42,173 bases of DNA from Thermoanaerobaculia bacterium (GTDB taxonomy: Bacteria > Acidobacteriota > Thermoanaerobaculia > Gp7-AA8): positions 1-42,173 of the forward strand of contig DATLYG010000194.1 in the NCBI GenBank assembly GCA_035574985.1, written 5' to 3'. The notes under the pieces were generated by a model. That model saw only the letters and a list, made by a program, of their open reading frames with translations, was not told the origin of the DNA and did no database searches. Of this stretch, positions 28,129 to 37,936 are shown piece after piece. Within the stretch, counting starts at the first letter, position 1. Each line of letters opens with the position of its first letter. The position numbers and the translations under genes were made by a program.

Positions 28129-28938
28129 CTATCGCCTCACTTTCGACATGTCGATGCCCCGCTTCGCGAACGGAGTGGCCAGCACGTCGTACATGCGCGC
28201 GGAGAGGAGGCGTGCAAAGCGCATGAGGAGCGACATCGGGAGCGGGAACTCGATGATCCGCTCGCCGCGTTCGATGCCGTCGGCGATGATCGCCGCCGCG
28301 TCGGTCACCTTCACGAGAAACGGCAGCTTGTGCCTGTACTTTTCGAGAATCGGCGTGTCGACGTAGCCCGGATTGACGATCGTGACGCCGACGCCGTACG
28401 GAATCAGCTCCACGCGGCTCCCTTCGAGAAATGCCTGCACCGCCGCCTTCGTCGCCGAGTAGACCGCCGACGTCGGGAGCCCGCGGAGACCGGCGATGGA
28501 GGCGACTCCCACGAAGCGCCCCGAACGGCGCGCCACCATGGACGGAATCACCGCCGCGAAGAGATGCATCACACCGAGGACGTTGACGCGGATCATCGTC
28601 TCGGCATCGTCGAGATCGAACTCCGTGCTGGAGGTCGGAATGCTGACGCCGGCGTTGGCGACGGCGAGGTCGAACGGGCCGCCCAGCGCCTCCTCGCCGC
28701 GGCGGACGGCGTCGAAGACCGCCTCGCGGTCGGTCACATCACACGGGATGGCGACGCTCCCCCTCAACTCCTGCGCCAGGCGCGCGAGTTCGTTCTCCCT
28801 TCGCGCGAGCAGCGCCGAAACGTATCCCCGCCGCGCCAGCTCGCGCGCCAGCGCCATTCCGATCCCGCTCGAGGCCCCTGTGATGATTGCGCGTTTCAAG
28901 TCCGTGGTCGGTGGTCCGTGGTTCGTTGCCGGGAGCAT
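28129..28938 (-). CDS. SDR-family oxidoreductase
   Basis: TGASSGIG cofactor motif, NAG, and the YSATKAA catalytic motif. Confidence 0.85.
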   Translation of the reverse strand: MLPATNHGPPTTDLKRAIITGASSGIGMALARELARRGYVSALLARRENELARLAQELRGSVAIPCDVTDREAVFDAVRRGEEALGGPFDLAVANAGVSIPTSSTEFDLDDAETMIRVNVLGVMHLFAAVIPSMVARRSGRFVGVASIAGLRGLPTSAVYSATKAAVQAFLEGSRVELIPYGVGVTIVNPGYVDTPILEKYRHKLPFLVKVTDAAAIIADGIERGERIIEFPLPMSLLMRFARLLSARMYDVLATPFAKRGIDMSKVRR

Positions 28939-29013: not shown

Positions 29014-29256
29014 TCACTCACCGATGATCTTGATCAGCACCCGCTTGTCGCGCCGCCCGTCGAACTCTCCGTAGAAGATCTGCTCCCACGGTCCGAAGTC
29101 GAGCTTCCCGTTCGTGATCGCGACCACCACCTCCCGCCCCATGATCTGGCGCTTGTGGTGCGCATCGCCGTTGTCCTCCCCGGTGCGGTTGTGGTGATAG
29201 CGCTCGGGACTCGGATCGTACGGCGCGAGCCACTCGAGCCAGCGTTTGTAGTCCTC
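29014..29256 (-). pseudogene. yjbQ: YjbQ/UPF0047 (secondary thiamine-phosphate synthase family) gene fragment, C-terminal 80 codons
   Basis: [80 protein letters not shown] is the conserved C-terminal two-thirds of the family. The track ORF extension to 29352 ([14 protein letters not shown]...) is not family-like. Confidence 0.8.
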
Positions 29257-29285
29257 GGAGCCCATTCCCAAGTGTTTCAGCCGGA

Positions 29286-29325
29286 GTGCTGCGGCGCGGC
29301 ACGGGCGTTCCTTCGGCCGAGCAGC
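29286..29325. repeat. Imperfect palindromic element related to the 32736-32823 inverted repeat
   Basis: GTGCTGC-N13-CGTTCC-TTCGG-CCGA-GCAGC shares the GTGCTGC, TTCGG, CGTTCC and CCGA(A)GCAGC blocks with the arms of the large inverted repeat. GCTGC and GCAGC can pair. Confidence 0.4.
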
Positions 29326-29337
29326 GGAGAATGTCAG

Positions 29338-31695
29338 ATGGCAAAAAGGCAACGCAGGATACCGCGAGCGTCTTCATCAACGACGACGAACGCGGCCTGC
29401 CCGGTGTTTGTGGACATGACGGAGTATGTCTATGAGCAGTCCTTTCCGAGCGGGCTTGACACGTACAAGGTGCGCGAGCAGAACAAGGTTGGGATCACGA
29501 TCACGAAGGACTACTGCACGTCACCAGACGGGCGTTGTGGCATCACGTACGCGGGGTCCTCGGTCACGGTGACGTACACGACCGGCATCGAGGCGGGTGT
29601 CTACTCGGGGAACAACCAGGTCGGCGCGATTCACGGCCCCACCGAAATGCCGCTCGTCGTGCAACTCTCTGCATTCGACGGGACGTCGCTTGCCGGCAAG
29701 GCGGTGGAGTTCAAGGTGACGAGCGTCCCCACGCGCGCGACGGCGACGACGATTGGCGCGACGGAGTCGGGCACCACCACGACGTACACTGCGACCGCCG
29801 ACGCCTCGGGTCGCGCGCAGGCGACGATGGTGTTCGGGAACAAGGATGGCACGTACACCGTCGAGGCGATCAGTCCGCTGAGCAACACGAAGGTTCCGGC
29901 GACGTTCACGGCCACCGCACGTGTGCCGACATCAGTGCGGATCGCGCGACGCGACGAGAATATGGAGTTCGATGTGTACAGCAACCCGTACGTCGTCCTC
30001 CCGCTGCAGGGCGCGCGCTTCCGAGCGATAGGATACGACGGAGGTGGACGCATCGGACCGGTCCGCGCGGACTGGAAAACCAGCGTTGCTAAGGGCACAA
30101 CAGAGCCAGGAGGTGCCACGCTTGCCCCCATCACGGCGTCATCGTTTACGTCATTCACCCCGACAGCATTCGGCAAGCTCACCCTAGAGGCGACGACTAG
30201 CCCGCGCATTTCCGGCGTCTCCACCGCAAAGGCGCCGGTGGAGATCCGCACGGGCGTCTTCCTCGACGTGGACAACAACTTCGTCCCGTCAGGACCGGAG
30301 GATGACCTGCCGACCTTTCTGCCTGGCGCGATCGGCGGATCGTCCGTGCTGCCGGCCCTGATGCCGCAGCAGGTGCAAGTCCACGTACTGACGCCGCCGA
30401 GCATGTCGGGTACGGTGCAGTTTGAGATTCTGGATACATCGAGCTTTCCAGGGCTTGCAATGAACTACCCTGCCAGTGGTGCAGTGAGCGAGGATGACAC
30501 GTACTTTCATGACGGCGTGTCGCGCGTAAGGGCGCTGCCGCCGGCGAGCCCAGCCGTCTCAGGAGACTCCGTGGCAACGCTCTTCGTCAATGATTACGCG
30601 GCGCGCGCAAAGCTCCGCGTCACCGTCACGCCGACGGGTCGTACGCCCATCGTTCTCGGACCGATCGCCATACCGACGGATGCGAACCTTAACGGCCTCC
30701 CTGACGCCTCATGGAGTCCCAACACGACGCCCGATACCTCATTAGCCGAAACACAAGACATTGACGCGCAACCAGCAGCGAGCGGGGACCCGACGCTTGG
30801 TTTGACCGGCGACGGGTTGACGGTGCTTGAGGAGTACCGCGGATTCGTCGTTGGCGGAGTGCATCGGCGAACGAACCCAGACAAGAAAGATCTCTTTATA
30901 CGCATGGATGCCGCCCTAACGCCATTTGCAGACTTTCTGAACTCGCTTCCGCTTGATCTGCACTACGTAGAATCCGCGGAAGTGAGGGGCGACGGACCCT
31001 CCGTGATTAATCCTACTCGATGCGATCCCGATCCTACTCGACCCTGCATGATTGGGTCGAGCGCTCAGCGCGCTGCTCGCTTCAAGGAACGCCGAGGAAT
31101 AGGCTGGCGGCGCGATTCCGCGGGCCAACTCTATACCGACACAAGATTATGGGGTGCCGTATACTTTGACGGCCACGACACCTTCGCGGCGGACGATCGT
31201 CTAACTGATGCGGATGTCAAAAGCACCAACGAATCGCTCTACGCCGACATTTACACAGATAATCACAGCAAACGCGCGATTCTGACGAACGATGGCATTA
31301 TTGACGATCCGAACGCGCAGATCTGTACTGCGATGAATCAGCGAACGACGTTTTACAAGTGCGACGACGTGACTCTAAGGTATCCAACGACAGGCACGCC
31401 GCCGGCCGCCGTTGAGCCCGGGCCTGACGACTGGCAGACTACCGCTATGGGGAACGACACCTACGGTAATTACTTGCCAAATGGGTGTCCCGCAACGAAC
31501 ACATTGTTCCTGGGCCCGATCGCCATCGACATGCTGAAGCGGAATACCATCGCACACGAGGGAGGCCACTTGCTCGACATGAAACACTACGACACCTGCA
31601 GCCCTGCGGGCGTCATGGGTCTGCCATTCTTACCGATACCGGACAACTACACCGCAACTGATCTCGCGCAGATCCGTGTGCATCGCAAATACTGA
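29338..31695 (+). CDS. Large Ig-like (Big_1-type) domain protein with C-terminal metzincin-like zinc-protease motif
   Basis: Long ORF with lower [26 protein letters not shown]...[26 protein letters not shown] is invasin/Big_1-like. [13 protein letters not shown] is a calcium-binding-repeat-like segment. [16 protein letters not shown] (HExxHxxDxxH) is followed by GVMG (a possible Met-turn). ATG at 29338 has GGAG about 8 nt upstream, and ATG at 29416 is an alternative start. No signal peptide. Confidence 0.7.
29361..29399 (+). pseudogene. yjbQ: YjbQ gene fragment, 13 middle codons, inverted relative to the other two fragments
   Basis: ACC GCG AGC GTC TTC ATC AAC GAC GAC GAA CGC GGC CTG translates to [13 protein letters not shown]. 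This is the conserved family segment expected between ..NAMHI and (H)EDY.., but it is encoded on the plus strand. Confidence 0.75.
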
Positions 31696-31707
31696 GGAGG
31701 ATCAGAG

Positions 31708-32697
31708 ATGAGATCGCGTACTGTCTCGACGATTCTGCTTATTCTCGTGTCGATAATCGCGCAATCAGCGACGGCTGGCGTCATAGTATCCGGCTGGGTT
31801 AAGTACCATCAGTTGTTTTTCAGCGAACCACATCCTGGCGTGACCGCTCCGCAGCTCGTCTTTGCCGACGAGAAGCCGCGCCTTGAGATACGCGTCTTCA
31901 TGAACCCCCTCCGTCGTGGTCCAAAATATGAGAATGTTAAGGAACACGAACAGATCACGTTCGGAACAACGCCGTGGTGGACGAACGCCTGGCTGCGGTT
32001 CGAGAACCACACGACTGGAGAAACGCGCACGATACCCGCAAGCGACTTGCGGTTTGTTGCAGAGCGGTCTGACCGAGAAGGTGGTCGAGAAAGCGTGAAT
32101 GCGATTCGCGATGACGAAATCGTCTATGCCGAATTTGATTTGCCACCCTTCGCCCTGGGTGACTACCACCTCATCGCCGAATTGAGGGTACCTCAGGTCG
32201 GGTCGCAGCCCGAGCAGATGTTTCGATCTGATACACCCTTCGCATTCAGCGTTCGGCGTGGCGATGAGGACGTTGATACGCGCCGTGCTTACTTGCGGGC
32301 GCGAGCCCAACGGCTCGCAGCAACGCCAGGAGTCGGGTTCGATCTGTTTCGCACTACGGTCGAGGAGCTCATGCAGCTCGAGCCCAAGAATCCGGGGAAC
32401 CTGGAGTGGCTGGGGGATCTCGCTGTTTCGCTGTCTACCGCTGAAGAAGCAACAGCCTATTACGATCGCACGCTCGAGCTGATCAGGACGAATCTCATTG
32501 AGAAATTTGGCCCTGCCGAAGCTTGGTCAAGCGAGGTGAAGGAGTTTTGGTCGCAGCGGGAGCGAGCCTTGACCGTTGTCCGTCGCGCAAGCGCGCTAGC
32601 CAAACCAGGAAGCTGGATGTCCGTCCTAAACGACGGGCGATCGAAACGCATTCTGTTGTACACGCCTGGTGAACACAGGGCACGGCACATCGACTAA
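31708..32697 (+). CDS. Secreted hypothetical protein (N-terminal beta-rich region, C-terminal helical/TPR-like region)
   Basis: AGGAGG lies 7 nt upstream of the ATG. Signal peptide [24 protein letters not shown]. Lowest GC in the window. It starts 12 nt after the stop of the metalloprotease-like gene. I recognise no family. Confidence 0.75.
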
Positions 32698-32735
32698 CGT
32701 AACAGTTAACTGAAAACGACGTCGGATGTCGCAGT

Positions 32736-32823
32736 TGTGCTGCTTCGGTCGGAACGTGACGGATCCTCCTGCCGTGTGCGTAACACGGCGGTTGGTCCGT
32801 CACGTTCCGACCGAAGCAGCACA
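32736..32823. repeat. Perfect 28-bp inverted repeat with 32-nt spacer containing a nested 7-bp hairpin
   Basis: TGTGCTGCTTCGGTCGGAACGTGACGGA (32736-32763) is the exact reverse complement of 32796-32823. The spacer contains GCCGTGT-gcgta-ACACGGC (32771-32789). The element starts 38 nt after the stop of the preceding gene. Confidence 0.9.
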
Positions 32824-32878
32824 GTTCCTTTGAAGAAAAACGGCGGGTCATCGAAAACATCACCGAGCGCATCGTCAT

Positions 32879-33016
32879 GATGTGCATCGCATTCACGAGG
32901 CAGAGCCCTTCCTTCACGCCGCTCTCGCGCACCTCGCGCTCGACCTCCCGGGTGATGTTGACGAACTCCATCCGCTCCTTCGTGTGGAACGTCAGCCGTT
33001 TCGTATGCGACTTCAT
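32879..33016 (-). pseudogene. yjbQ: YjbQ/UPF0047 gene fragment, N-terminal 46 codons
   Basis: [46 protein letters not shown] is the conserved family N-terminus. After Ile46 the reading frame continues into non-homologous sequence ([10 protein letters not shown]...) through the inverted repeat. Confidence 0.8.
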
Positions 33017-33026
33017 GGCGCGAAGC

Positions 33027-34862
33027 CTACTGCAGCTTCGGCAGCTTCGCTCCCTTCCTCAGCACCGGCTCGAAGAGATCGCCGACCTTCGCCAGACGCT
33101 CCGGCATCGTCCGGAGGTTGAACTTCCCCGGATCGAGATCCTTCCCGACCTCCTCCCACTTCAGCGGCGCCGATACCGGAGCACCGTCGACGGCGCGAAG
33201 CGAATACGGCGCGACGACGGTCTTTCCGTATGCGTTCTGCATGCAGTCGAGATACAGCCGTCCGCGGCGCCGGGTCAGGCTCCGCTCCGTCGTCATCCAC
33301 GGCACGCGGGCGGCGACGGCGCGAGCAATCCCGCAGGCAAACTCTGCGGCATCCTCGTGCGTGTAGCCGGCTGCGAGCGGGACGAAGATGTGGATCCCCC
33401 GTTTTCCCGACGTCTTCGGCACGCTCGGCAGCTCGAGGGTCTCGAGCAGTCCCCGCATGACGTTTGCCGCATCGATGGCCTGCTCGATGCCTTTCCCCTT
33501 CGCCGGATCGAGATCGAACACGATCCAGTCGGGTTGTTCGAGCTGCTTCGCGCGCGAGGCCCACATGTGGATGGTCAGGACGGACATCTGGGCCAGCCAC
33601 CGCAGTGCGGCCGGACTGTCGACGACCAGATGGCGCACGGCCTTTCGCTCGCCGCCGCGCGTGGGCGTCATGACCGTGGTCAGCCAGCCGGGCGCTTCCC
33701 TGCCGAGGTGCTGGTGAAACCACGACGGCTTGTCGATTCCCTCGTTCCAGTGCTCGAGCGCCAGGGGGCGGTCACGCAGCGAGCGGAGCATCGGTTCGGC
33801 CATCGCCTCGTAGTAGTCCGCCACGTCCTGCTTGGTGATCCCGTCGCGCGGATAGAGGAGCCGTCCCGGATTCGTCAGGATCACCTCGGGCGCCTTCGCC
33901 TTCCGCGTCCGCTTCGGCTTCGGCTCGTGAACGGGGCGCTCGCGAACGACCTCCTCGGGCGCCTTGTCGGGCCGCAGTCCGAGGAACGACGGGTGGCGGA
34001 GGCGATGATCGGACGTCCACTCCGTGAAGGCGACCTGCGCGACGAGGCGGGGCCGCACCCACGTCGCATCGCGCGCGCGAGGCGGGTCCTTCACCGGCGG
34101 CGACGGGACCGCGTCGCGCGACAGCTCGCTCCACAGCTCCTTCCGCAGCTTCGACGAAAACCCGGTCCCTACCTTTCCGGCGTAGCGAAAGGCGCCGTCA
34201 TCGTCGCGTACCGCGAGATGAAGCGAGCCGATCTCGTTCGGAGACGCACTGCTCGGCTGGTAGCCGACGATCACGAACTCCTGGGTGTTGAGCGCCTTGA
34301 TCTTCAGCCACTGCTTCGAACGCCGCATCTCGTAGATCGAATCGCGCCGCTTCGCGATGATCCCCTCGTACCCCTCGATCGCGGCGCGGCGCAGTGCCTC
34401 TTCCCCATCGCCCTTCAGACGCTGCGCCAGCGAGACCCCCGCAGGCGGGTTGCGCAGGATCTTCTCCAACGCCCCTCGCCGCTCCTCCCACGGCCGGTTG
34501 CGGAGGTCCTCGCCGTCGAGCCAGAGCAGGTCGAACAGAACGATGCGCGCTCGATGCGCCCCTCCCTGCAGAAGCTGGAAGCGCGGAACACCCTTCTCGT
34601 CGACGGCGACGATTTCCCCGTCGACGACCGCCTCTCGAACCTTCAGCTTCGCCAGCGCCTCGGCAACGTGCGGAAAGCGGTCGGAGAGATCGATCTGATT
34701 GCGGCTCCACAGCGCGACTTCACCGCTGCAAATCGCGGCAATCGCCCGGAACCCGTCGTACTTGAGTTCGTACACCCAGTTCCCGTCGTCTTCGGGCGGA
34801 GCGCCGGCGAGCGTCGCCAGCATGGGAGGAAAGAATCGCCTGATGAGCTGTTGCGGTTTCAC
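33027..34862 (-). CDS. ligD: ATP-dependent DNA ligase LigD (ligase + polymerase/primase domains, Lig-Pol order, no PE domain)
   Basis: YELKYDGFR (KxDG adenylation motif), then EGIIAKR. The C-terminal half carries LigD-Pol motifs ([45 protein letters not shown]). 611 aa. Confidence 0.9.
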
Positions 34863-35120
34863 GTCACGGTTCCTCGTTGCATGCAGGCTGCCGAGGCGGC
34901 AATCATGGTAGCCCGCACGGGCCCGCGTCGCGGAACGCGGGCGCTGCGCCGCGCCGTTTCCTCAGGACGGCGATCCGCAGGAAGCGTGGAACAAGGCCGT
35001 GCCCGCAGCGATGCCTGAAGCACGGTTCGCCACTCCGAAGCGGAACGGCGAGGCGGTCAAAATCGTTCGGGAGACATGGGCGGTCGAGCCGACGAACCGC
35101 CGAAGGAGGAGAGACATACG

Positions 35121-35372
35121 ATGCACGAAGCCGGACGGCCGGTGACCCGCTCGCTCGAGGAGATCAAGTCGATGGCGGCATCGGTGGCCCGTGAGATGCA
35201 GGCCGGCGCGATGACCGACGAGCTGCGCGCGCGATTCATCGAGCTTCGCGCGGCGCTCTTCCAGCGCGGGATCCACGATCCGGTGCTGGCCCGCTTCGAC
35301 AGCGCGACGGTCCCGCGGGCCTCGCAGCAGGAAATCGCGGCGCAGCTCGCCGCGGTGGCCGAATCGCTCTGA
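35121..35372 (+). CDS. Small hypothetical protein (83 aa)
   Basis: ATG at 35121 preceded by AAGGAGGAG. High GC3 and a helical-looking sequence. No family recognised. Confidence 0.55.
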   Translation: MHEAGRPVTRSLEEIKSMAASVAREMQAGAMTDELRARFIELRAALFQRGIHDPVLARFDSATVPRASQQEIAAQLAAVAESL

Positions 35373-35430
35373 CGGGCCCGCCTGACGGGTTCGTTGACCG
35401 ATCCGCTGACCGATCCGCTAACGGATCCGC
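35370..35430. repeat. Five tandem ~12-nt units (TGAC/TAAC-initiated)
   Basis: TGACGGGCCCGCC / TGACGGGTTCGT / TGACCGATCCGC / TGACCGATCCGC / TAACGGATCCGC span the whole gap between two convergent stop codons (35370-35372 and 35418-35420). Confidence 0.8.
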
Positions 35431-35852
35431 AGGTAGCACTCGTCGTCACCGACGAACTCGATCCGGCCCGCCGACTGGAGCTGCCGCAGCCGCTCCTGCA
35501 CGCGCGGGTGGGCGATGTTGCGCTTCGAGCCGAAGACGCGAACGAGCGCCGCGAGGGGAACGGCGTCGATCCCGCGATCGCGGCAGCAGTCGATGCCCAC
35601 CTGCAGGGCGTCGAGGCGGAACTCCACGTCGCGGTCGAGCAGATCGTCTTCCCCTCGCATCGCCGAGCCGAATTCGAGCATCGTCTCGAATGGCAGCGGC
35701 CGGAACTCGTCGACGCCGCGGGCGCGCAGCTCGTCCTCCGGGATCTCCTCCGCACACACCAGCCCCGGCACCTCGGCGCCGAGATCGTCGACCTCCCACC
35801 CGATCCACCGCTCCCGCCCGAGAAGCGAGATGCGCTGCACGTAGCGCGTCAT
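35418..35852 (-). CDS. Hypothetical protein (144 aa)
   Basis: Start trimmed to ATG at 35852 (MTRYVQRISLLGRERWIGWEVDD...). High GC3. The C-terminal RVQERLRQLQSAGRIEFVGDDECYLRI may be winged-helix-like (weak). Confidence 0.55.
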   Translation of the reverse strand: MTRYVQRISLLGRERWIGWEVDDLGAEVPGLVCAEEIPEDELRARGVDEFRPLPFETMLEFGSAMRGEDDLLDRDVEFRLDALQVGIDCCRDRGIDAVPLAALVRVFGSKRNIAHPRVQERLRQLQSAGRIEFVGDDECYLRIR

Positions 35853-36084
35853 GATGCGCCTTCCATAGCGCGATTCGTTCCCGGCGCGCGTGAGCCGGCT
35901 CACGTCCGGCGAGAAAAACTCCGCGGCTCCCCTCCGGTGCCCCTCGACGAGATGCCCCCCTGCCCGTTGCCGTGCATCGGCTCGCTCCAGGAATGCGACC
36001 CTGCGTTCCCTCGCGCCCCGCCCGTCAGGATGACACCGCGGCGTCACCCCGTTCCCCTCCGCCCCTCTGCTATTCTCCGCCGCC

Positions 36085-37398
36085 ATGAGTGACGCCATTG
36101 GATCTCTGTATGCGGACCATGTCCGGACCCTTCGCGAGCGGCACGATCGCGCGCTGGCGGCGACGGCATTCGATCACCTGATCATCGAGTCGGGGTTCCA
36201 GCGCTATCAGTTCCTCGACGACATGCCGTATCCCTTCAAGGTCAATCCACACTTCAAGGCGTGGGTCCCGGTCGTCGACAACCCTCACAGCTTTCTCGTC
36301 TACACGCCGGGGCGAACGCCGCTCCTGCTCTTTCACCAGCCGGTCGACTACTGGCACAAGGTGCCGGAGGCGCCGTCCGGCTTCTGGGTCGAACACTTCG
36401 AGATTCGCCCGATCGCCTCCCCCGACGAGGCGAGGCGGCACTTCCCCGCGAGCGGCCGTGTGGCGACGATCGGCGAGAGCGAGTCGGATGGCGGGGAGGG
36501 GCGCAACCCGGAGGCACTCCTCAACCGGCTGCACTTCGACCGCACCATCAAGACCGAATACGAGATCGAGTGCATGCGCCGCGCGAACCTTCTCGGCGCA
36601 CGCGGGCATGTCGCCGCCGAGAAGGCGTTCCGCGACGGCGCCTCGGAGTACGAAATCCATCTCGCCTATCTCGCCGCCGCAAACCACACCGAGGACGAGC
36701 TCCCTTACGGCAACATCATCGCCCTCGACGAGCATTCGGCGACGCTGCACTACTACGCACACGACCGACGGCGGAAGAAGGCGCGCTCGTTCCTGATCGA
36801 CGCCGGCGCCTCCTGCAACGGGTACGCGAGCGACATCACCCGGACGTACGCCGCCTCCGATGGCCTGTTCGCCGAACTGGTCGCGGCGATGGACGCGATG
36901 CAGCAGTCGCTCGCCGCCGAAGTGAGGCCGAAGATGAACTACATCGACTTCCACCTCCTGGCATACCGGAAGGTGGCGGAGATCCTCGTTCGCTTCGGCA
37001 TCGTGCGCGAACTCGACGCCGGAGCGGTCGTCGATCGGCGGATCAGCAGCGCGTTCTTTCCCCATGGCATCGGCCACTACATCGGTCTGCAGGTGCACGA
37101 CGTCGCCGGGTTCATGAAGGACCCTTCCGGCGCCACGATCCCGAGGCCGGAAGGCCATCCGTACCTCCGCCTCACGCGGGTGGTCGACGCCGGTCACGTC
37201 TTCACCATCGAGCCGGGTCTCTACTTCATCGACCCGCTTCTCGCGGAGCTGCGCGCGAGCGGAAACGCGAAGTATGTCGACTGGGAGAAGGTCGACGCGC
37301 TCCGACCCTGCGGAGGAATCCGCATCGAGGACGACGTCGTGGTGCGGGAAGGGGGCGTCGAGAACCTGACCCGCGCGGCGTTCGCCCATGTTTCCTGA
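36085..37398 (+). CDS. pepQ: Xaa-Pro dipeptidase (prolidase, M24B)
   Basis: Collinear with E. coli PepQ from the N-terminus (LYADHVRTLRER...FLDDMPYPFKVNPHFKAWVPV...PVDYWH) through the metal-binding region (HGIGHYIGLQVHD, FTIEPGLYF, IRIEDDVVV). Confidence 0.9.
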   Translation: MSDAIGSLYADHVRTLRERHDRALAATAFDHLIIESGFQRYQFLDDMPYPFKVNPHFKAWVPVVDNPHSFLVYTPGRTPLLLFHQPVDYWHKVPEAPSGFWVEHFEIRPIASPDEARRHFPASGRVATIGESESDGGEGRNPEALLNRLHFDRTIKTEYEIECMRRANLLGARGHVAAEKAFRDGASEYEIHLAYLAAANHTEDELPYGNIIALDEHSATLHYYAHDRRRKKARSFLIDAGASCNGYASDITRTYAASDGLFAELVAAMDAMQQSLAAEVRPKMNYIDFHLLAYRKVAEILVRFGIVRELDAGAVVDRRISSAFFPHGIGHYIGLQVHDVAGFMKDPSGATIPRPEGHPYLRLTRVVDAGHVFTIEPGLYFIDPLLAELRASGNAKYVDWEKVDALRPCGGIRIEDDVVVREGGVENLTRAAFAHVS

Positions 37399-37936
37399 CT
37401 TCGTTTCCGCCGCTCCGCTGAAGGAACTCTCCTCGGCGCTCGGGGTGCTGTCGGCGATGATCACGCCGGCGGTGCTGATCCTCGCCTCGGGATCGCTGAT
37501 CCTGACGACCTCGAACCGCCTCACGCGCGTGGTCGACCGCGTCCGGGAGATGCTCGCCGACCTCGAAGCGATCGCCGACGCCTCCGACGAGCTGTCGAAC
37601 GAGAAGCGCACACTCCTCTTCGCGCAGCTCGAGCGCGCCACCCTGCGCGCCCGCCTCCTTCAGCGCGCCATGACCCGCCTCTATCTCGGCCTGGCCATGT
37701 TCATCGCCACGAGCGTGTCCATCGGCGTGGTGGCCCTCTCCTCTCGCTTCGCCTGGATGCCGCTTCTGCTCGGCTTCATCGGCGCGGGACTCCTCTTCTG
37801 GGCGAGCATCATCCTGATCTTCGAGTCCCGCCTCGCTCTTGCCACCACCTACGCGGAGATGGACTACATCTGGCGCGTTCACATGCCGGCCGACCGGCGC
37901 GAGCGCCTGCGCGACGCCTGGTGGCACTTAAAGTGA
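37388..37936 (+). CDS. DUF2721-like membrane protein
   Basis: 182 aa with TM segments flanking a charged coiled region (SNRLTRVVDRVREMLADLE...). Overlaps the pepQ end by 11 nt. Confidence 0.65.
   Translation: MFPDFVSAAPLKELSSALGVLSAMITPAVLILASGSLILTTSNRLTRVVDRVREMLADLEAIADASDELSNEKRTLLFAQLERATLRARLLQRAMTRLYLGLAMFIATSVSIGVVALSSRFAWMPLLLGFIGAGLLFWASIILIFESRLALATTYAEMDYIWRVHMPADRRERLRDAWWHLK

Follow-up and report, generated by a model that had tools for sequence, protein, structure and literature searches.

A yjbQ gene in three pieces with its middle piece inverted: a candidate natural scar of multi-fragment end joining

The closest described counterparts of the locus reported here, a yjbQ gene lying in three pieces in a metagenomic contig of 42,173 nucleotides (DATLYG010000194.1; this whole stretch of DNA is called the window below), come from work on non-homologous end joining (NHEJ) in bacteria. 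In S. meliloti, a chromosome cut by I-SceI takes up heterologous DNA at the break in an NHEJ-dependent manner, and the inserts include cassettes in reverse orientation and tandem inserts of two cassettes (Dupuy et al. 2019, PMC6379672). In Streptomyces ambofaciens, NHEJ scars contain fragments of 30-83 bp from nearby regions, and insert lengths lie between 30 bp and 18.8 kb (Hoff et al. 2018, PMC5869714). As these cases are described in the available text of the two reports, our locus is like them in its homology-free joints, in the little or no loss of target and in inserts of tens of base pairs to many kilobases; it is also like them in that short pieces from the neighborhood of the break occur in either orientation, that multiple fragments are joined and that foreign DNA can take part. 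It is unlike them in that their breaks were induced with I-SceI and their dependence on Ku/LigD was proven, whereas the putative scar described here is a natural one known from sequence alone, and in that its approximately five joints, flipped target piece and palindrome go beyond the cases found in that text. The explanation that we favor, and to which we give about an even chance, is that several fragments were joined without homology, in the manner of NHEJ, at two nearby breaks in yjbQ.

The three pieces of yjbQ together account for a nearly complete gene. Piece N (32879..33016, minus strand) carries codons 1-46 (MKSH...NAMHI), piece M (29361..29399, plus strand) carries codons 47-59 in 39 bp on the strand opposite to that of N and C, and piece C (29014..29256, minus strand) carries codons 61-140 and the stop (EDYKRW...KIIGE*). 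All three were identified by translation and tblastn. When the whole window was searched by tblastn with intact YjbQ proteins from the JGI sequence Ga0451477_000254 (hereafter L086), from an Acidobacteriota genome (L002) and from Thermotoga (TM0723, of solved structure), each query gave exactly three high-scoring segment pairs, covering residues 1-46, 47-59 and 61-140, and no second copy of yjbQ was found in the window. Piece M is identical to the YjbQ of L086 at 13 of 13 residues. At the DNA level, N, M and C put end to end are collinear with the intact yjbQ genes of L086 and L002. The joint between N and M, which natively reads ..ATGCACATC|ACCGCGAGC.., is seamless, and the single missing residue is His60, whose codon CAC is gone between M and C. 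The original prediction had described three undecayed pieces with the middle one flipped and about one codon, a His, missing; the translations, the tblastn matches, the DNA collinearity and the structural alignment given next bear this out, and M is indeed the segment absent between the two minus-strand fragments.

Joined, the 139 residues align end to end with TM0723 (1vmj; residues 1-139, E 1e-58) with a lone gap of one residue, and likewise with aq_2013 (2p6c) with one single-residue gap. They cover the Pfam family UPF0047 (PF01894) in full (2.8e-35, model positions 1-117 of 117) and are 91% identical to the intact YjbQ of L086. The 39-mer of M also resembles the yjbQ genes of other species in its DNA, at up to 38/39 nt (L056). 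A chance match in three pieces is excluded, and yjbQ here is a disrupted member of the YjbQ/UPF0047 family: there is no uninterrupted open reading frame (ORF), the coding sequence being divided among three pieces that occupy both strands of a 4-kb stretch. The gene is predicted to be dead as a result of the rearrangement. Just upstream of the C fragment, at 29263-29265, there is an in-frame ATG (MGS-EDYK...) that is a possible new start made by the rearrangement.

Between N and C, at least four segments and at least five new joints form a mosaic, which replaces the single 3.6-kb insert of the original prediction. Read along the plus strand, yjbQ-C (to 29256) is followed by segment a (29257..29360), which is 104 bp long, lies between yjbQ-C and the flipped M and is bounded by the joints J1 (29256|29257) and J2 (29360|29361). 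After M comes segment b1 (29400..32735, plus strand), which starts at J3 (29399|29400) and consists of 3,336 bp of foreign DNA with a truncated gene A, the whole of gene B and 38 nt of 3' flank. Then follow segment P (32736..32823), an 88-bp palindrome that begins at J5 (32735|32736), and segment t (32824..32878), 55 bp between the palindrome and yjbQ-N, which itself begins at 32879 after J4 (32878|32879). The palindrome has perfect 28-bp arms (32736-32763 and 32796-32823), an inner 6-bp stem and an imperfect middle, and its arms occur in the window as these two copies only. Its predicted DNA fold, at -59 kcal/mol (z = -9.8), would be very stable in the single-stranded state.

These joints are seen in the reads and not only in the contig of the window. 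A Logan contig from run SRR7882662 (L001) is 100% identical to window 29126-32793 and runs unbranched through C, segment a, M and b1, across J1-J3, and a second contig from the same run (L088) is 100% identical to window 32795-37622 and runs through t, N and ligD, across J4. Because L001 and L088 cross all four yjbQ joints at 100% identity, these joints recur in the reads. The Logan contigs represent an independent assembly and not an independent sample, as both assemblies probably used the same reads; no publication on run SRR7882662 was found. They stop at the center of the palindrome (32793 and 32795), and that join is known from the window's own assembler only. No competing path, either an intact yjbQ or a full-length gene A, breaks the Logan contigs at M, J3 or J5. 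A misassembly at the four yjbQ junctions is therefore unlikely and largely excluded, which to a large extent settles the concern, raised with the original prediction, that the contig might be chimeric or inverted. At its other end, L001 stops at 29126, inside the C fragment of yjbQ and away from every joint, perhaps owing to a dip in coverage or a variant strain.

The composition of segment b1 marks it as foreign. The GC content at third codon positions (GC3) is 0.72 in gene A and 0.63 in gene B, compared to 0.85-0.91 in the host genes and the yjbQ pieces, while M alone, at 0.92, is host-like and differs from the insert around it. Copies of the same DNA are also found in other surroundings. 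Contig L089 (L089:1-1271, run SRR33230231) is 99.45% identical to window 31468-32735 and contains a relative of gene B with 98% identity. It diverges from the window exactly at the start of the palindrome, and the similarity is not resumed in t; past this point L089 has unrelated sequence with a convergent ABM-domain gene, whose GC3 of 0.68 likewise sets it apart from the host genes of the window, and the palindrome is absent. Contig L090 (L090:1303-2266, run SRR33270674) is 98.9% identical to window 30829-31792, and upstream it has an unrelated 3-keto-disaccharide hydrolase domain protein and an unknown ORF, so that gene A is cut there at a different place (about 30827 versus 29400 in the window). 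The two contigs share two variants in their overlap and probably describe one locus. The DNA of genes A and B has thus very recently existed in at least three forms: that of the window, a shorter one in another genome and, presumably, a longer or complete one, which would be expected because both known copies are truncated. This suggests that the DNA was fragmented and integrated more than once. The earlier claim that the inserted DNA is foreign holds, given the low GC3 and the copies at 99% identity in other contexts.

Gene A (first ATG at 29416, stop at 31695, plus strand), which has a metzincin-like motif, is truncated at its 5' end, and gene B (31708-32697, plus strand) is complete and begins with a signal peptide. 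Among the relatives of gene A, full-length proteins have 850-965 aa, and residues 2-10 of gene A align at their positions 120-190; the homologues carry 115-220 more N-terminal residues, signal peptide included. In the homologue P0001 and at the L082 locus, the signal peptide is followed by a domain, about 110 residues long, that closes with C-P-x-x-x-D-x-x-x-Y-x-F-E-Q-S-F. The preceding 113 residues of the gene A family have no counterpart anywhere in the window. Since the homology begins at about 29395-29400 and the preceding residues are absent from the window, gene A is cut at the joint between M and b1 (J3). It is thereby predicted to have lost its signal peptide and N-terminal domain as a result of the rearrangement.

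Read directly against the native yjbQ sequence, the joints have next to no homology. At J1 and J4 the overlap with the native neighbor is 1 nt at most, at J2 and J5 there is none, and at J3 it amounts to 1 nt on the yjbQ side; on the donor side of J3 it could reach 3 nt (TGC), provided that the donor carried the Cys codon that is conserved in the family. The target site was not duplicated, and no direct repeats lie on either side of the insert; inverted repeats at the termini or boundaries are likewise absent, with none pairing J1 with J3 or J2 with J4, and no transposase, integrase, invertase or recombinase is encoded in the 42-kb window. On all these points the original prediction had been right. 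Homology that is absent or no longer than about 4 nt, together with the lack of a target duplication, is what characterizes joints in NHEJ scars, and the target here lost only CAC. The inserted DNA fits arbitrary fragments with no defined ends, in that gene A is cut at J3, the homology to L089 stops at P and a piece of the target itself is included.

Three kinds of known element were rejected. Disruption by a transposon or insertion sequence is alike in that a gene is interrupted by kilobases of foreign DNA with passenger genes, but here there are no transposase, no terminal inverted repeats and no target duplication, the passenger gene is cut and a piece of the target is inverted. Site-specific invertible segments (Hin/Gin/Cin, shufflons and fim-type systems) are alike in that a segment is reversed relative to its flanks, but here boundary inverted repeats and a recombinase are missing from the window, and a housekeeping-type gene has been destroyed with no expression switch to be seen. 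An integron cassette was rejected because the GTTCCTT after the palindrome does not conform to GTTRRRY, there is no integrase, no attC lies between the genes and the palindrome is absent from L089.

We propose that the ancestral operon ligD-yjbQ-SDR-DUF4442 (SDR, short-chain dehydrogenase) was broken twice within yjbQ, once behind codon 46 and once, 42 bp further on, within codon 60. The piece of 39-41 bp released between the breaks would have been re-ligated in reverse orientation without homology, and at least three other pieces would have been ligated in at the same time: 104 bp on one side of M and, on the other side, the foreign fragment of 3,336 bp followed by the palindrome and 55 bp. 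The b1 fragment would have been broken inside gene A, and the net loss of target would be 1-3 nt. The edges of the inverted piece are the edges of the gap, as they should be if the fragment was physically cut and flipped. The cut passenger gene, the several short fillers and the lack of repeats or a recombinase would all follow from the proposed multi-fragment end joining at two breaks. The most likely machinery would be the cell's own Ku/LigD pathway. It suggests itself because the window encodes a complete LigD, with both the ligase and the polymerase domain, and because there is laboratory precedent for such capture. That this was a single event, that it started from double-strand breaks and that Ku/LigD did the joining is what we infer from this anatomy. 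The event is young, as the gene pieces are intact and near-identical donor-like DNA is still present in other samples. The original prediction had offered repair of the NHEJ type as speculation; the idea is strengthened by the mosaic and the truncated gene A, although the mechanism still belongs to what we infer and not to what we observe.

Comparable outcomes are familiar from end joining in eukaryotes, where inversional V(D)J joining, dual-cut genome editing and the capture of nuclear mitochondrial DNA (NUMT) or Ty sequences give inversions between nearby cuts and patchworks of filler DNA. The general likeness is that of two breaks, a middle piece re-ligated backwards, extra DNA patched in and microhomology of 0-4 nt, while the kingdom and the enzymes are different.

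Other routes to the same arrangement have to be weighed against this multi-fragment end joining. One that we consider unlikely is a succession of two events, in which a foreign segment (a plus the reverse complement of t-P-b1) was inserted at codon 60 and 29361-32878 was later inverted by an illegitimate event, with the second breakpoint 39 bp away at codon 46/47; in the mirror version, the insertion was at codon 46/47 and was followed by an inversion of the 143 bp at 29257-29399. The original prediction had called for an insertion plus an inversion of this sort, and it is indeed the minimal formal solution and calls on ordinary events only; in the 3.5-kb version, moreover, the abutment of gene A on M is simply the plain original insertion joint. 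It is not, however, the simplest account of a mosaic with at least five joints. Independent breaks within 42 bp would be required in a megabase genome, neither pair of inversion boundaries (J1/J3 and J2/J4) has inverted repeats or microhomology, and b1 ends abruptly at the palindrome, so that extra joints are needed regardless. The 143-bp version also needs the reverse complement of a to lie upstream of gene A, and as the missing upstream part of gene A this sequence was rejected: it has in-frame stops and no similarity to the N-terminal domain of the family in the three frames read. Replicative template switching, as in fork stalling and template switching or microhomology-mediated break-induced replication (FoSTeS/MMBIR), appears less probable still. 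A stalled nascent strand would have switched to the other strand of yjbQ, used it as template over 39 nt, moved on to foreign DNA and ended up back in yjbQ. Such switching yields multi-segment mosaics, short inverted local copies and microhomology of 0-3 nt, as seen here, and the perfect 28-bp arms of the palindrome could be a fold-back copy. There is, however, no reason why an inverted copy should match the edges of the deletion, and nothing is duplicated or lost beyond 1-3 nt. The copying of 3.3 kb of a compositionally different foreign molecule would be atypical, and the palindrome is imperfect between the inner stem and the outer arms, unlike a fresh fold-back copy.

The recurrence of the DNA of genes A and B at 99% identity in other surroundings, with another left end in gene A (30827 versus 29400), could also point to a mobile element with a trans-acting enzyme, either of a rolling-circle or one-ended type (IS91/ISCR-like) or palindrome-ended, with the flip of M as a side product. 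The right end at 32735 is possibly common to the copies and the palindrome adjoins it, and a fixed end with variable length fits one-ended transposition. We nevertheless hold this to be very unlikely. No transposase, Rep or HUH transposase is found in the insert, in the window or in the short related contigs, there are no terminal repeats and no target duplication, and such an element would account neither for the inversion of M nor for the 104-bp piece. The palindrome is absent from L089, has no second copy in the window and was not found in exact form in viral contigs, and the insert finds nothing in plasmids or phages. The least probable of all, to which we assign only a very small chance, is an artefact, that is, a chimeric or inverted contig that arose in assembly or library preparation. 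The window is metagenomic, the Logan contigs break at the center of the palindrome, and the same reads were probably used twice. Against this, L001 and L088 are unbranched at 100% identity, so that the junction k-mers recur in the reads, and at no joint is there a shared repeat of the kind from which chimeras arise in de Bruijn assembly. An error at the palindrome join would still leave M flipped beside C on one contig.

Several points weigh against multi-fragment end joining. A single event with about five ligations exceeds the complexity reported in the available text of PMC6379672 and PMC5869714. The data give no indication of what caused two breaks so close together; inspection, by eye only, revealed no BcgI-type site of the sort that would have suggested cutting by a type-IIB restriction enzyme. 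No Ku domain is encoded in the 42-kb window. The center of the palindrome (32794) is the sole point that is not spanned by independent contigs, and no source has been identified for a, P or t that would mark them as separate fragments and not as parts of one donor segment. The arrangement is also a single occurrence in one sample, and no allele of the same species, intact or identically rearranged, was found elsewhere, the best match to the reconstructed YjbQ being 88% in the genome-contig scan and 91% in the protein search. The exact 39-mer of M had one match in JGI metagenomes, in an unrelated intact yjbQ, and look-ups of the 173-aa ORF with the N fragment, of the 611-aa form of LigD and of the SDR gave no record.

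If the proposed end joining is correct, the locus exemplifies in nature a process that laboratory work has established, well preserved and known as a single case from a metagenome, and it would mean that several fragments can be joined at once. To our knowledge, clean natural end-joining scars with every joint visible have rarely been pointed out. The retained target piece serves as an internal control for the positions of the breaks, and the scar can guide searches for further cases, in which a conserved gene would be split, an internal piece of it inverted and the filler of foreign composition. Comparative statistics, too, have led to the proposal that integration by end joining transfers genes between distant species. 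Tentatively, the DNA of genes A and B may have been captured independently in another genome, with recurrent linear fragments stitched in by Ku/LigD and end joining driving horizontal transfer, here from a compositionally distant donor into an uncultured soil-type bacterium, but we hold this wider idea to be somewhat doubtful. For the organism, the consequence would be the ordinary loss of one small gene.

The gene that encodes LigD lies next to the rearrangement. ligD (33027..34862, minus strand), with ligase and primase-polymerase domains (Pfam LigD_Prim-Pol at 2.8e-83, DNA_ligase_A_M and DNA_ligase_A_C), is immediately upstream of yjbQ, and by the ORF coordinates 10 nt separate its stop from the yjbQ ATG, which corrects the 11 nt given originally. 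On the Logan contig L088 it was called in a 598-aa form with the start at 34823. On the far side of the empty site lies the SDR gene (28129..28938, minus strand; Pfam adh_short 3.3e-50), the ancestral downstream neighbor of yjbQ. In L086, the genes ligD, yjbQ, SDR and DUF4442 have the order and orientation of the window's flanks, and yjbQ is uninterrupted; the proteins are 66%, 91%, 66% and 65% identical, respectively, to those of the window. The comparison with a relative carrying an intact ligD-yjbQ-SDR locus, which the original prediction had recommended, thus defined the empty site. An intact yjbQ directly after ligD is also found in the Acidobacteriota genome L002. Judged by these relatives, the adjacency of ligD and yjbQ is inherited gene order and lies outside the rearrangement. 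LigD, furthermore, acts in trans. The presence of ligD beside yjbQ is therefore not evidence of cause, because the adjacency is ancestral in relatives with an intact yjbQ and because LigD acts at a distance from its gene, and the earlier hint that the adjoining ligD matters was not borne out. ligD is now separated from the downstream genes of the operon. The nearest relatives indicate that the host is probably an acidobacterium, and the remaining genes of the window are those of ordinary chromosomal metabolism, peptidases, transporters and signalling.

Even with relaxed thresholds, neither gene A nor gene B could be assigned to a Pfam or NCBIfam family, and gene A was not found in viral contigs. 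An exhaustive search of a library clustered at 50% gave 904 representatives of the gene A family with E of 1e-3 or below, 60 of them with E of 1e-30 or below. The family has one conserved motif and, toward the C terminus, HExxHxxxxxH with metzincin spacing, and one relative of gene A gives weak matches to M43 and reprolysin models at the HExxH site. Some relatives are 2,000-2,600 aa long with 7-18 matched stretches. At L082:2500-2900, on the contig that carries the homologue P0002, the N-terminal domain (signal peptide ... ECPFYSDLQAYTFEQSF) is found upstream of the called start in another frame, so that a frameshift or an error in sequencing has probably cut short the 757-aa gene call of P0002.

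The short segments of the mosaic offer little of their own. Segments a, P and t were compared with the rest of the window, with the loci retrieved, and with plasmids, phages and viral contigs, and no match was found; segment a has no codon-position GC signal, and P gave nothing above threshold as an RNA family in Rfam, with sub-threshold matches to generic or miRNA-type hairpins only. Together, a and M (29257-29399) and P and t (32736-32878) flank b1 with 143 bp each. As hidden terminal repeats they were rejected, since their alignment scores equal the shuffle means in both orientations, and we treat the equal lengths as coincidence. Scans for promoters and terminators gave nothing above the shuffle expectation. 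A direct repeat of 19 nt with 84% identity (32628-32646 and 32838-32856), extending weakly to about 28 nt, joins the 3' end of gene B with t and may be due to chance or be a trace of related sequence. In segment a, a GGAG with an ATG at 29338 opens a frame that runs through the flipped M, in another frame, into gene A, and this is a possible new start made by the rearrangement (29326-29416).

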